Below are positions 1-4,277 of a DNA stretch of 4,277 bases, piece by piece. Position 1 is the first letter of the stretch. The number at the start of each line of letters is the position of its first letter. The stretch lies in the IMG/VR virus record IMGVR_UViG_2734482566_000010; one strand, written 5' to 3'. The DNA is from a virus. Taxonomy: Duplodnaviria; Heunggongvirae; Uroviricota; Caudoviricetes. The position numbers and the translations under genes are program-made. Under the pieces are notes generated by a model. The model worked only from the letters and a program-made list of their open reading frames with translations. It ran no database searches and was not told where the DNA came from.

Positions 1-75
1 GCGGACAGCATCAGTAACGAAAGTATTTAGCGGGCATGAAAATGGCAAATAACGGTCAAACATCGTGGCGTTGAC

Positions 76-140
76 ACAATTGCGATCTTTTCCTGTGTGG
101 TACGCCGTCTGCGTTTCTCCGGCCCTAAGACATCAATCAT
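76..140 (-). pseudogene. IS2 orfA (InsC-like) 5' fragment; reads [22 protein letters not shown] then diverges and stops at 26-28
   Basis: Minus-strand ATG at 138-140 followed by the characteristic IS2 OrfA N-terminus; frame leaves IS2 homology after ~22 codons. Confidence 0.6.
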
Positions 141-231
141 CTGTACTCCAATGACTAGTCTAAAAACTAGTATTAAGACTATCACTTATTTAAGTGATAC
201 TGGTTGTCTGGAGATTCAGGGGGCCAGTCTA
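76..231 (-). mobile_element. IS2 left-end fragment (terminal inverted repeat plus first ~22 codons of orfA), truncated at ~76
   Basis: Reverse complement of 76-231 matches my recollection of the IS2 left end (TAGACTGGCCCCCTGAATCTCCAGACAACC...ATGATTGATGTCTTAGGGCCGGAGAAACGCAGACGGCGTACC...) with one or two mismatches. Similarity stops after GCAATTGT; 1-75 is unrelated sequence. Confidence 0.8.
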
Positions 232-351
232 CGGACATTTTCTGCCTGTGGACCAGGAAAGTGCACGGGTGCTTTCCACTCCCATGAAGCCCGGCAATCC
301 GCGCAGATACAGTAATAAACGAACTGACAGCAGTAAGATGGAGCGTTTCTT

Positions 352-609
352 TTGAACAACCAGACAATGACTTTTACCCCTGAACAATTGCGTAAACACG
401 CGCAGGAAATGCTGCGTCATGCTGAACAACTCGAAAAAACGGGCATAACAAAAGACGCTATCCGTAAAGATATGGTACCCGCGCTTCGGGAACTGATGCA
501 GGCGAAGCATCGCGCACAGAAAGCAGTAGATGAGCTGGTGGACTGTGTGGCAGAGCTGGAAACCAGAGTCGGAAAGTTTGAAAAACTGGTGCAGGAGGTG
601 CTGCGCTGA
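352..609 (+). CDS. hypothetical phage protein (85 aa, helical/coiled-coil-like, no Cys motif)
   Basis: ORF with TTG start at 352 preceded by GGAG at 340-343 (alternative ATG at 367). Stop TGA 607-609 overlaps the rusA ATG at 609-611, indicating translational coupling. No family recognised. Confidence 0.6.
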   Translation: MNNQTMTFTPEQLRKHAQEMLRHAEQLEKTGITKDAIRKDMVPALRELMQAKHRAQKAVDELVDCVAELETRVGKFEKLVQEVLR

Positions 610-983
610 TGCGCCATGAGTTTATTTTACCTTATCCGCCGACGGTGAATACTTACTGGCGACGTCGTGACAACACATATTTTGTATCAAAAGCCGGTGA
701 GCGTTATCGCCGGGATGTGGCGCTTATTGTCCGTCAGCAGCGACTGAAATTAAGCCTGTCCGGAAGACTGGCGATAAAGATTATTGCAGAGCCACCGGAT
801 AAGCGCCGTCGTGACCTGGACAATATCCTGAAAGCACCACTGGATGCACTGACACATGCGGGAGTGTTAATGGACGATGAGCAGTTTGATGAAATCAATA
901 TCGTTCGTGGTCAGCCAGTATCTGGTGGACGTCTGGGGGTGAAGATTTACCCCATAATGCATGAAGAGCAGGTCAAAAAATGA
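609..983 (+). CDS. rusA: RusA-family crossover junction endodeoxyribonuclease (Holliday junction resolvase), 124 aa
   Basis: Strong AGGAGG at 593-598, 10 nt before the ATG. Protein shows the RusA signature LPYPP..N.Y, VS..G..YR, PD.RRRDLDN (catalytic Asp pair), DAL..AG...DD.Q and GGRL, collinear with E. coli RusA as I recall it. Confidence 0.9.
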   Translation: MRHEFILPYPPTVNTYWRRRDNTYFVSKAGERYRRDVALIVRQQRLKLSLSGRLAIKIIAEPPDKRRRDLDNILKAPLDALTHAGVLMDDEQFDEINIVRGQPVSGGRLGVKIYPIMHEEQVKK

Positions 984-1801
984 AACTGGAAGATTTACCG
1001 AAATACTACTCCCCAAAATCCCCTTGCCTGACCGATGCATCGGCCTCAACGTCAAAAGATGCGCTGAGTATCACTGATGTGATGGCCGCGCAGGGCATGA
1101 CACAGAATCGGGCTGAGATGGGGTTTTCTGCGTTCCTGGGGAAAATGGGCATCAGTATGAATGACAGGGCGCGGGCAACAGAATTACTGGCAGATTATGC
1201 ACTCAGTCGGTGCGATCGTGTGGCGGCGTTGAGAAAACTTCCGGCAGAAATAAAACCGGTAGTGATGCGCATTATGGCTTCGTACGCTTTTGAGGATTAT
1301 GCCCGCAGCGCAGCGAGTAAAAAGCAGTGCCCTTGTTGCTATGGGGAAAAATTTATTGAAAGCGTAGTTTTTACAAACAAGGTCCAGTATCCGGATGGTA
1401 AGCCGCCGGTATGGGCAAAGTGTACGAAAGGTGTGTATCCGTCTTACTGGGAAGAATGGAAAAAAGTCAGGGAGGTGGTAAAAGTTGCCTGTCCGGAGTG
1501 TGGCGGAAAGGGTGAGGTTTCCACCGCCTGTAAGGATTGCCGTGGGCGTGGTGTCGCCATTCATCGTGAAGAGTCGGTAAAACGTGGTATGCCTGTTATC
1601 AGAGACTGCCAGCGTTGTGGTGGTCGTGGCTATGAAAGACTACCATCAACGGAGGCATTTAATGCTATATGCGAGGTGACAAACCAGATAACACGCGCGT
1701 CATGGGAAAAAACAGTTAAGAAATTTTATGATGCGCTGGTGACCCGGTTTGATATTGAAGAAGCATGGGCTGAGCGGCAGTTAAAAAAGGTAACTAGGTA
1801 A
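980..1801 (+). CDS. Q: Late-gene antitermination protein Q (lambda Q family), 273 aa, with expanded Cys-rich central module
   Basis: ATGA overlap with the rusA stop. N-terminus (..SPKSP....TDVMAA.GM....FGK...S.ND...) and C-terminus (CxDCxGxG...CxRCxGxGY.R.P.....W..TVK..YDALV......V.R) align with lambda Q as I recall it. Followed immediately by a PR'-like promoter. Confidence 0.85.
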   Translation: MKLEDLPKYYSPKSPCLTDASASTSKDALSITDVMAAQGMTQNRAEMGFSAFLGKMGISMNDRARATELLADYALSRCDRVAALRKLPAEIKPVVMRIMASYAFEDYARSAASKKQCPCCYGEKFIESVVFTNKVQYPDGKPPVWAKCTKGVYPSYWEEWKKVREVVKVACPECGGKGEVSTACKDCRGRGVAIHREESVKRGMPVIRDCQRCGGRGYERLPSTEAFNAICEVTNQITRASWEKTVKKFYDALVTRFDIEEAWAERQLKKVTR

Positions 1802-1806
1802 CAAGG

Positions 1807-1846
1807 TTGATTTTTCCGGAATCTGTGGTAAATTCGTTATAACGAT
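1807..1846 (+). promoter_or_regulatory. Late promoter PR' with Q-utilisation pause element (-35 TTGATT 1807-1812, -10 TAAATT 1829-1834, AACGAT 1841-1846)
   Basis: 16-bp spacer. The -10 hexamer and the downstream ACGATGGG with 7-nt spacing are identical to lambda PR' and its sigma70-dependent pause site as I recall them. Sits directly after Q. Confidence 0.75.
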
Positions 1847-1881
1847 GGGCGTTTTATGCCTGACGTTAGAAGAGTTTCTAC

Positions 1882-1905
1882 AACCCGCCGCCGAGCGGGT
1901 TTTTT
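1882..1905 (+). terminator. Intrinsic terminator (tR'-like) ending a short PR' leader transcript of about 65 nt
   Basis: Stem AACCCGC (1882-1888) / GCGGGTT (1895-1901), loop CGCCGA, T-run 1900-1905. Confidence 0.7.
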
Positions 1906-2025
1906 ATGACTGAAATCGCGTCAGTACAGTAAACGCGCTGGTGGCGGTGAATACCTGTCTTTCAGCTTGCTGGCTTTTTCGACAAGAGTTATTGGTGTGT
2001 CACGTTAACCGGAAAAGGAAAAGAC

Positions 2026-2281: not shown

Positions 2282-2393
2282 ATCTGCTCATGCGTTGGGT
2301 TCACAAGCAAACCTCAGGCCCACTGCTTTGCGCAAAAGCAGAATGAGCCTATCAGAGACAGGCTTAATGATCCATGCTTAATACTGTAAAAAT

Positions 2394-2683
2394 NNNNNNN
2401 NNNNNNNNNNNNNNNNNNNNNNNNNNNNNNNNNNNNNNNNNNNNNNNNNNNNNNNNNNNNNNNNNNNNNNNNNNNNNNNNNNNNNNNNNNNNNNNNNNNN
2501 NNNNNNNNNNNNNNNNNNNNNNNNNNNNNNNNNNNNNNNNNNNNNNNNNNNNNNNNNNNNNNNNNNNNNNNNNNNNNNNNNNNNNNNNNNNNNNNNNNNN
2601 NNNNNNNNNNNNNNNNNNNNNNNNNNNNNNNNNNNNNNNNNNNNNNNNNNNNNNNNNNNNNNNNNNNNNNNNNNNNNNNNNNN
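2394..2683. other. Run of 290 N (assembly gap or masked sequence)
   Basis: Directly visible. Nothing inside can be annotated; ORF-track segments translated as X are artefacts. Confidence 1.
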
Positions 2684-3475
2684 GAAATCATGATGCGTGA
2701 ACGCTTCAGTGTGCTGAACCATATTATCTGGGCGAAGCCGTCCGGACGCTGGAACGGATGCAACAAGGAAAGCCTGCGGGCGTATTTCCCCGCCACAGAG
2801 CGCATTCTGTTCGCGGAACATTATCAGGGGCCGTATCGTCCGAAAGATGCCGGGTATGCGGCGAAGGGCAGTGCACTGAAACAGCATGTGATGGCCCCGC
2901 TGATTTCTTACTTTCGTGATGCGCGAGCTGCCCTGGGGATAACGGCAAAACAGATTGCAGATGCCACAGGAAAGAAAAACATGGTGTCGCACTGGTTCAG
3001 TGCCGGTCAGTGGCAGTTGCCGAATGAAAGCGATTATCTGAAATTACAGGCGCTGTTTGCCCGGGTGGCAGAAGAGAAGCATCGGCGTGGTGAACTGGAA
3101 AAGCTCCACCACCAGCTGGTGGATACGTATACCTCACTGAACCGGCAGTATGCGGAGCTGCTGAGTGAATATAAACATCTGCGGCGGTATTTTGGCGTGA
3201 CGGTGCAGGTGCCGTATACCGATGTGTGGACGCATAAACCGGTGCAGTTCTATCCCGGGAAACATCCGTGCGAAAAACCGGCAGAAATGCTGCAGCAGAT
3301 AATCAGCGCTAGCAGTCGTCCGGGTGACCTGATTGCAGATTTTTTCATGGGGTTGGGTTCGACAGTGAAAGCGGCACTGGCGCTCGGGCGTCGTGCAATT
3401 GGCGTTGAGCTGGAGACTGAACGTTTTGAGCAGACGGTTCGGGAAGTACAGGATTTAGTCAGCCAGAACGGATGA
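2684..3475 (+). CDS. DNA methyltransferase, beta-class N6-adenine/N4-cytosine type (N6_N4_Mtase-like), 5' end lost in the N-run
   Basis: C-terminal HPCEKPAEMLQQIISASSRPGDLIADFFMGLGSTVKAALALGRRAIGVELE matches the HP.xKP...GD.V.DPF.GSGTT...LGR..IG.E SAM-binding block (motif X + motif I) of beta-class MTases. N-terminal visible part has the IIWAKP motif. No DPPY-type catalytic motif in the visible 261 aa, so it must lie upstream in the gap. Frame is open from the first non-N base. Confidence 0.8.
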   Translation, partial: EIMMRERFSVLNHIIWAKPSGRWNGCNKESLRAYFPATERILFAEHYQGPYRPKDAGYAAKGSALKQHVMAPLISYFRDARAALGITAKQIADATGKKNMVSHWFSAGQWQLPNESDYLKLQALFARVAEEKHRRGELEKLHHQLVDTYTSLNRQYAELLSEYKHLRRYFGVTVQVPYTDVWTHKPVQFYPGKHPCEKPAEMLQQIISASSRPGDLIADFFMGLGSTVKAALALGRRAIGVELETERFEQTVREVQDLVSQNG

Positions 3476-3477
3476 TA

Positions 3478-3506
3478 TTGAAGAATTAATTACGCGTCGT
3501 TATTAT
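3478..3506 (+). promoter_or_regulatory. Putative sigma70 promoter for the tRNA array (-35 TTGAAG 3478-3483, -10 TATTAT 3501-3506)
   Basis: 17-bp spacer; -10 lies about 10 nt upstream of the first tRNA 5' end. Confidence 0.5.
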
Positions 3507-3515
3507 GCGGCTCCC

Positions 3516-3591
3516 GGCCCTTTAGCTCAGTGGTGAGAGCGAGCGACTCATAATCGCCAGGTCGCTGGTTCAAATCCAGCAAGGGCCACCA
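3516..3591 (+). tRNA. tRNA-Ile2 (anticodon CAU, ileX/ileZ-like; formally CAU could also be Met)
   Basis: Hand-folded cloverleaf: 7-bp acceptor GGCCCTT/AAGGGCC, D-arm GCTC..GAGC, anticodon loop CTCATAA (CAT at 3549-3551), T-arm GCTGG-TTCAAAT-CCAGC, encoded CCA. Close to E. coli ileX as I recall it. Confidence 0.85.
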
Positions 3592-3598
3592 TCACATA

Positions 3599-3675
3599 CC
3601 GCCATTAGCTCATCAGGAAAGAGCGCCAGCCTTCGAAGCTGGCTGCGCGGGGTTCAAGTCCCCGATGGCGGTCCA
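3599..3675 (+). tRNA. tRNA-Arg (anticodon UCG)
   Basis: Acceptor CCGCCAT/ATGGCGG (7 perfect bp), U8, D-arm GCTC..GAGC, anticodon stem CCAGC/GCTGG with loop CTTCGAA (TCG at 3633-3635), T-arm CGGGG-TTCAAGT-CCCCG, encoded CCA. Confidence 0.8.
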
Positions 3676-3688
3676 TTATCTGCATCAT

Positions 3689-3746
3689 GCGTTGTTAGCT
3701 CAGCCGGACAGAGCAATTGCCTTCTAAGCAATCGGTCACTGGTTCG
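3689..3746 (+). tRNA. tRNA-Arg (anticodon UCU, argU/argO-like), 3'-truncated after GGTTCG of the T-loop; probable pseudo-tRNA
   Basis: Acceptor 5' strand GCGTTGT, D-arm and anticodon arm ATTGC-CTTCTAA-GCAAT are intact (TCT at 3723-3725) and homologous to argU up to GGTTCG. No complementary T-stem 3' strand, no ACAACGC acceptor 3' strand and no CCA downstream. Confidence 0.6.
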
Positions 3747-3766
3747 CTTTTGCGGGCCTTTTTTTT
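3741..3766 (+). terminator. Intrinsic terminator built on the remnant T-arm of the truncated tRNA
   Basis: Stem GGTTCGC (3741-3747) / GCGGGCC (3752-3758), 7 bp with two G-U pairs, loop TTTT, then an 8-T run at 3759-3766. Confidence 0.6.
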
Positions 3767-3963
3767 AAATGTCTCACAATTCAGACGGTTGACAGTTGTC
3801 TGTTTTGCGGGGAGTTTGTTAAAAGAAACTGGCATGGTGAATCCCCCTGTGCGGAGGGGCAATCAGCGAGTAGGTATATGGGATAATCGCGGATTCAGGT
3901 GCTGGTACTGAATTCACCGGGAGGCACCCGGCATCATGCAATGGCACATAGCGCCACTCTCCA

Positions 3964-3986
3964 GCCCTCTCCGGAGGGGCTTTTCT
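3964..3986 (+). terminator. Putative intrinsic terminator ending a possible small RNA
   Basis: GC-rich palindrome CCCTCTCCGGAGGGG followed by CTTTTCTG. Confidence 0.45.
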
Positions 3987-4170
3987 GTGCCGGATACATC
4001 ACAGTTTCTGGAACCTTAGGTACTACAGTATCAGTCAGGGTGCTATATTTTCAGATGTGATGAAAGCCTGTCAGCAGGCAGGGCGTATCGGAAATGACCC
4101 AGTAGAGAAAACGTTGACTCAGATACCGGTGCTGAGTTACCGGGAAACCGGCATCACATGACCGCTATCC

Positions 4171-4277
4171 TGAGGTGTACTGGCAATAGCGGACACTACC
4201 ATTTGTTCTTTTTTTAAGCAGCCATCTGATGATATTTTTCCCTGAAGGCTGCCGGGGAGATATTCCCCAGACGAGAG
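4171..4277 (-). mobile_element. IS3-family insertion sequence, right end (IRR), continuing beyond the window
   Basis: Terminal sequence TGAGGTGTACTGGCAATAGCGGACAC has the TG...CA terminus and the GCAATAG.GGACAC core resembling IS3 inverted repeats. A transposase C-terminus is encoded just inside it on the minus strand. Confidence 0.7.
4214..4277 (-). CDS. IS3-family transposase (OrfB) C-terminal fragment, partial at window edge
   Basis: Minus-strand frame reads ...SRLGNISPAAFREKYHQMAA then stop (4214-4216). The LG..SP..F motif is typical of IS3-family DDE transposase C-termini. Stop lies 43 bp inside the IR terminus. Confidence 0.65.
   Translation of the reverse strand, partial: SRLGNISPAAFREKYHQMAA

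Follow-up and report, generated by a model that had tools for sequence, protein, structure and literature searches.

The closest described relative of the locus analysed here is the ileZ-argN-argO tRNA array of Shiga toxin (Stx) and other lambdoid phages (Stx2a_1447/WGPS2, 933W-type). In the Stx2a phage, the three genes with the anticodons CAU, UCG and UCU are located after Q and a DNA methylase gene, and argO is followed by a terminator and stx2A/B. The same gene order, anticodons, location and terminator are found in the 4,277-nt stretch of viral DNA studied here (the window), which is 93% identical to the Stx2a sequence over the 3' end of the methylase gene and the array. The two differ in that argO of the window lacks its 3' 19–22 nt and in that stx is absent, the gene of an STnc100 sRNA directly following the terminator, a layout also known from hundreds of E. 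coli prophages without stx. Names and history are given here according to GenBank annotations and general knowledge; a search for ileZ, argN and argO together returned no papers in the literature collection used.

Two known kinds of event are relevant for the interruption of argO. Spontaneous deletions of the lacI type in E. coli are classic cases of replication slippage between short direct repeats. Similarly, the block missing from the window is flanked by an 8-nt repeat (7 of 8 positions identical), of which one hybrid copy is kept; unlike in lacI, the repeat is short and imperfect, and slippage is the mechanism we infer for it. The second kind is the attachment-site tRNA gene, into which foreign DNA has been inserted and whose 3' part is duplicated. 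As in partial tRNAs of this kind, argO is interrupted in or near the T-loop, but nothing is inserted into argO, the window contains no duplicated 3' part, and 39 bp are simply gone. Judged from sequence comparison, the locus is very probably the known lambdoid module, in which a strain-private slipped-strand deletion of 39 bp has left argO dead and the terminator in place. Such an event is ordinary gene decay of an already known kind, a textbook short-repeat deletion giving rise to a tRNA pseudogene.

The tRNA array and its prophage surroundings

The window covers the late-regulatory region of a lambdoid prophage, with the end of an insertion sequence on either side (Table 1). Its first 231 positions are presumably the end of an IS2 copy, judged from the terminal sequence. 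Collinearity with IS-free relatives begins at 231 and ends at 4171, where a sequence starts that is 99–100% identical to entries annotated as 'IS3-like element IS600 family transposase' in 2,881 genomes. The IS2 junction (window 1–1907, 99.4% identity) is also present in Shigella sonnei chromosomes (L016–L018) and in contig L035 (GCA_900485225.1, UDRU01000153.1) of a Shigella-type draft genome. Among the complete chromosomes with this junction are CP041322 (S. sonnei, PMC8209639) and CP037997 (S. sonnei strain FC1653, PMC6836418); the late module after tR' in L016–L018 differs from that of the window. The IS600 junction was found in three draft contigs (L034, L035 and L038) and in none of 5,426 complete E. 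coli genomes and none of the GTDB representative genomes. The distribution of both junctions points to a Shigella/EIEC-type background. In the stx locus of S. dysenteriae type 1, IS600 is located upstream of stx (PMC7819885), and the window might represent this locus. L034, which alone among the relatives reads through the same IS600 junction, continues into a DUF3927-PmrD-DUF1737 late-region remnant, and none of the genes called beyond the junction in L034 carries a stx-family (Pfam) annotation.

Table 1. Features of the window, with coordinates counted from its first nucleotide
Feature	Position	Strand	Basis
End of a putative IS2 copy, abutting the early-right region of the prophage	1–231		Terminal sequence ...GGAGATTCAGGGGGCCAGTCTA
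80-aa gene, upstream of the RusA gene	367–609		ORF list
RusA gene	609–983		ORF list; PF05866 (RusA), precomputed Pfam match on the exact protein
Q-type late antiterminator gene, 273 aa	980–1801	+	ORF list; PF03589 (Antiterm), precomputed Pfam match on the exact protein
PR'-like promoter (TTGATT, 16 nt, TGgTAAATT) and tR'-like terminator	1807–1909	+	Stem 1882–1901 and T-run
65-aa ORF	After the tR'-like terminator, before the methylase gene		ORF list
N6/N4 DNA methyltransferase gene	2374–3475	+	ORFs; PF01555 on the exact 261-aa product
Sigma-70-like promoter (TTGAAG, 17 nt, TATTAT), just upstream of the array	3478–3506	+	Match in a consensus scan only
ileZ, complete tRNA, anticodon CAU (Ile2 type)	3516–3591	+	ARAGORN; Rfam tRNA, 72.5 bits
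argN, complete tRNA-Arg(UCG)	3599–3675	+	ARAGORN; Rfam tRNA, 58.0 bits
argO remnant, nt 1–58 of a 77-nt tRNA-Arg(UCU)	3689–3746	+	Alignments with intact copies
Predicted intrinsic terminator of the array (stem GGTTCGC/GCGGGCC, loop TTTT, T8)	3741–3766	+	Terminator scan, folding
Deletion junction, TCG common to both repeat copies	3744–3746	+	Deletion-register scan
STnc100-family prophage sRNA with its own terminator (3963–3985)	3803–3992	+	Rfam RF02076
IS600 end, interrupting the late region	4171–4277	− (transposase strand)	Annotated matches, 99–100%

Q and the 80-aa and 65-aa proteins belong to very common modules according to exact-protein look-ups, and the homolog of Q in E. coli 042 is annotated as 'antitermination protein'. 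The tR'-like terminator results from a terminator scan; the promoter-like element upstream of it was read by eye and, by analogy with lambda PR', may act as the late promoter, the promoter/tR' region having a putative function here. In phage Nil3, tR' is annotated at the corresponding place, between q and the tRNA array; q of Nil3 is unrelated to Q of the window, and the correspondence of the two tR' elements is one of position. The sole nucleotide difference between the window and L035 (1838, T/C) is located just past the -10 element of the PR'-like promoter. A weak match to the Rfam family isrK (1834–1905, 18.9 bits) covers the same region; it was set aside together with the other sub-threshold Rfam matches (P26, Trp leader and a second STnc100).

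The start of the methylase gene (2374) and the ORF for its C-terminal part (2690–3475) are in different frames in the window, and a masked run of 290 N (2394–2683) covers the gene from codon 7 onward. L035 has 254 nt at this place, and the difference of 36 nt could be padding of the mask or a real in-frame insertion. The methylase gene of L035 is frameshifted by a 7-bp duplication (GAAGCCT). Eight draft contigs were recovered in an exact-protein look-up with the 261-aa C-terminal ORF of the window. One of them, the 9,588-bp contig L034, contains the methylase/tRNA/STnc100 module twice and, in addition, a third STnc100 in remnant form, with IS600 copies between them; its two tRNA arrays lie within 4 kb. 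In the second copy, IS600 truncates the methylase gene just upstream of the 261-aa ORF, the same ORF that L035 reaches by frameshift. This layout suggests an IS600-mediated duplication or rearrangement of the late region. The insertions of IS2 and IS600, together with the frameshifted methylase gene in L035, mark the prophage as defective; it is a Shigella-type, IS-riddled and decaying lambda-like prophage.

The first-pass annotation had recognised the array as the ileZ-argN-argO set known from the interval between Q and stx in Stx phages. This assignment was confirmed, with 92–93% identity to annotated Stx2a arrays. The anticodons CAU, UCG and UCU occur in that order, downstream of Q/PR' and in a region homologous to annotated arrays, and homologs of the first gene are annotated as tRNA-Ile or ileZ. 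Only two of the three members are complete cloverleaf tRNAs: ARAGORN called those with the anticodons CAT (3516–3591) and TCG (3599–3675) and left the third uncalled. The acceptor stem of argN is perfect in the window and contains an A-A mismatch in E. coli U1 and 042.

The third gene is a pseudogene of the family member argO. It had been described from the letters alone as intact only up to G57, and alignments with intact copies bear this out, placing the cut in the T-loop after nt 58. The remnant keeps the 5' acceptor strand, the D-arm, the anticodon arm with TCT, the variable loop, the 5' T-stem and TTCG; everything 3' of these is gone, from the remainder of the T-loop through the 3' T-stem and 3' acceptor strand to CCA. 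With the Rfam tRNA model, it gives a partial, sub-threshold match (3696–3761, model positions 8–63) of 22.5 bits (gathering score, 29), compared to 70.1 bits for the intact argO of L034 and L035. The missing 3' part (AATCCAGTACAACGCGCCA) has no match elsewhere in the window with up to three mismatches allowed. By the standard codon-anticodon rules, tRNA-Arg(UCG) reads CGA/CGG, and argO, the member now truncated, was therefore the only decoder of AGA/AGG in the array. The view that the set decodes AUA and AGA/AGG thus needs correction for Arg(UCG).

The argO deletion and its junction

Alignment with E. coli U1, E. coli 042 and phage PhiR49_2 revealed a single gap of about 39 bp in the window (37–39 bp, varying with the length of the T-run in the relative), flanked by sequences of 96–98% identity. 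From the junction to 4171, identity is 98% in U1 and 042 and 100% in five draft contigs (L033–L035, L038 and L040). The DNA 3' of the breakpoint had been taken for unrelated sequence, but it is 98–100% identical to that following an intact argO, offset by exactly 39 bp, and nothing apart from these 39 bp is missing. All five contigs encode the 261-aa methylase ORF of the window. The most informative of them is L035, which has the same IS2 and IS600 junctions, matches the window at all but one of 3,987 unmasked bases and carries the 39 bp. In the other four, both flanks are identical over the segments compared and the 39 bp are likewise present, so that five of five informative sister contigs lack the deletion.

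The ancestral sequence, as given by L035, is CACTGGTTCG[AATCCAGTACAACGCGCCACACTTATTTTCCCTGGCTCG]CTTTTGCGGGCC, with the deleted block in brackets; in another notation it is CACTGGTTCG[AATCCAGTACAACGCGCCACACTTATTTTCCCTGGCTCG]CTTTTGC. The loss comprises the 3' 19–22 nt of argO and a spacer of 17–20 nt. At its ends, L035 has an imperfect direct repeat with seven of eight positions identical, CTGGTTCG in the T-arm and CTGGCTCG in the 5' arm of the terminator, 39 nt apart, and the window retains a single copy, CTGGTTCG. The breakpoint can be placed in four equivalent registers (3743/3744 to 3746/3747). Among all possible deletions of 20–79 bp in L035, only 0.34% have a junction repeat as good as 7/8. 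The exact microhomology is the 3-nt TCG, which taken alone has a p value of about 0.06.

No junction-spanning match was present in 5,426 complete E. coli genomes (megablast with an 85-nt query), and the 31-nt junction sequence GCAATCGGTCACTGGTTCGCTTTTGCGGGCC was not found in the GTDB representative genomes, IMG/VR or the JGI metagenomes. Exact-protein look-ups with the two ORFs that span the junction retrieved no record. Since the junction is absent from these collections and all five sister contigs are intact, the deletion is probably very recent and private to one strain. The truncation thus appears to be derived and restricted to one sequence; it is not an ancestral form widespread among prophages, an outcome that the first-pass annotation had named as one that would speak against its own reading.

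The same distribution would be expected if the strain had an intact argO and the 39-bp gap had arisen during assembly or consensus calling. Apart from the junction being found in no other public sequence searched and the five otherwise identical informative relatives all carrying the 39 bp, such an artefact would fit with the masked run of the window, which differs in length (290 N) from the 254 nt of L035. An artefact is nevertheless unlikely. The gap lies in unique DNA and not within a long repeat. A clean loss of 39 bp at a 7/8 repeat is a signature of slippage and does not resemble typical short-read or long-read errors, and the remaining 3,987 bases match the relatives at all but one position.

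To judge from the junction, the deletion most likely arose by slipped-strand mispairing between CTGGTTCG in the tRNA T-arm and CTGGCTCG at the base of the terminator hairpin. Slippage of this type would be a RecA-independent illegitimate recombination; hairpin-forming DNA is found beside both repeats (T-arm and terminator). One hybrid copy of the repeat remains, and the predicted stability of the terminator is essentially unchanged. The product of argO would be unable to form the acceptor stem or the T-arm, whereas ileZ and argN are untouched. A tRNA without the 3' T-stem, the acceptor strand and CCA cannot become chargeable, and the argO remnant is presumably not chargeable for this reason. 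Loss of argO was most likely neutral, which is plausible because the prophage was already defective, further copies of the array exist in related genomes and the host has its own tRNA for AGA/AGG.

The truncation might also be functional or selected, either through a benefit of losing the AGA/AGG tRNA for the host or through the fusion of tRNA fragment and hairpin acting as a stable regulatory RNA. The intact anticodon arm, the strong hairpin and the U8 tail form a shape that could stabilise an RNA, and the module comes with its own promoter-like site. Against this, shuffled sequence folds as well as the complete 84-nt fusion (z = -0.48), the allele is present in one sequence with no recurrence or spread in the collections searched, and the surrounding prophage is in general decay. 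A functional or selected truncation is therefore considered very unlikely. The more specific proposal, that the 5' 58 nt of tRNA-Arg(UCU) with the hairpin and U8 constitute a stable, Hfq-bindable, tRNA-half-like regulatory sRNA transcribed from the array's own promoter, is extremely unlikely; if it were true, the deletion would have gone beyond destroying a gene and given rise to a new RNA.

The terminator, STnc100 and the stx slot

A terminator hairpin directly after the cut had been noted before and was recovered here. It has 7 bp (3741–3758) with five G-C pairs and is followed by T8 (3759–3766), the GC-rich hairpin and U-run expected of Rho-independent termination. Its predicted folding energy is -11.3 kcal/mol (z = -3.5) in the window and -11.4 kcal/mol in an intact relative. 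The ancestral terminator, GGCTCGC-TTTT-GCGGGCC with a T-run, lies approximately 19 nt downstream of argO; in the window, the 5' arm starts with the tRNA-derived GGT and not with GGC, so that one G-U pair replaces a G-C pair. The same terminator follows argO in every terminator-type relative examined and is kept in E. coli U1 and 042 and in the phages PhiR49_2, Nil3, phi296 and Stx2a_1447. The element at 3741–3766, a predicted intrinsic terminator, is thus native to the array.

Downstream of the terminator, the window contains a full-length STnc100 match (model positions 1–206) of 123.6 bits, compared to a gathering score of 47 (E = 8e-28). STnc100 has been tied to the PasD sRNAs in a 2026 preprint (10.64898/2026.05.13.724894). 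The order in phage Stx2a_1447 is methylase, ileZ, argN, argO, terminator, stx2A, stx2B and STnc100, the STnc100 copy just after stx2B (L020, 4375–4590) scoring 153.8 bits. Sequences with and without stx part just 3' of the T-run, at about 3766–3768. The module boundary between stx-carrying and stx-less phages is located there and not at 3746/3747. Since stx2AB lies between the terminator and STnc100 in the Stx2a phage, the slot for cargo is found some 20 nt 3' of 3746/3747. In the window, STnc100 comes directly after the terminator, which is the common arrangement in the absence of stx. This layout is shared by 378 complete E. coli genomes that match the window up to 4171, in which the downstream DNA is 98% identical and three tRNAs are annotated in the region of the array.

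That no toxin gene follows the array was seen correctly from the letters: the window contains none, and STnc100 and the IS600 end occupy the downstream part. The accompanying proposal took 3746/3747 for a T-loop scar left by an integrase or by recombination, with loss or replacement of downstream cargo such as stx. In its favour, integrases are known to target the T-loops of host tRNA genes, and another T-loop-mediated rearrangement of the array exists in the ileZ/argO chimera of L005 (see below). The homology of Stx2 phages to the window also ends at 3746; this stop is, however, caused by the 39-bp gap itself, and the Stx2a phage has the terminator as well and diverges only after the T-run. 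The intact sister contigs, which share the stx-less layout, likewise have nothing in the stx slot. The flanks are collinear with intact stx-less relatives, nothing is inserted or replaced at the breakpoint, and the sequence 3' of it is not unrelated DNA. Within the window, the 3' end of the tRNA is not duplicated and no integrase gene is adjacent: the list of ORFs with 40 aa or more, of which a minority of the short ones were compared to a domain library, showed none. A scar with loss of cargo at 3746/3747 is thus given almost no credence. The apparent scar is very probably a private slip deletion in a known tRNA module and does not testify to toxin-gene loss or integration. Of minor value is the placement of the stx slot between the terminator of the array and STnc100.

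Other decay events in the array

The comparison is also of minor value in that the array appears to decay repeatedly in E. coli and Shigella prophages, via several independent small events. Four E. coli prophages (L005, L006, L008 and L013, at about 10967–11041) contain a single chimeric tRNA gene, in which the 5' part of ileZ through GGTTCAAATCCAG is joined to the 3' end of argO (TACAGCGCGCCA) by a deletion of approximately 177 bp between the T-loops. The chimera is still called as tRNA-Met(CAT) by ARAGORN, and its acceptor strands derive from different genes. In L024 and L030 (from 11621), argO ends after nt 42, shortly behind the anticodon loop, where it meets a DUF3927 ORF region; this truncation represents an independent event. 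Finally, L004 and the S. sonnei chromosomes L016–L018 have a degenerate argN between the ileZ and argO calls, in which the anticodon arm is replaced and which is left uncalled by ARAGORN.
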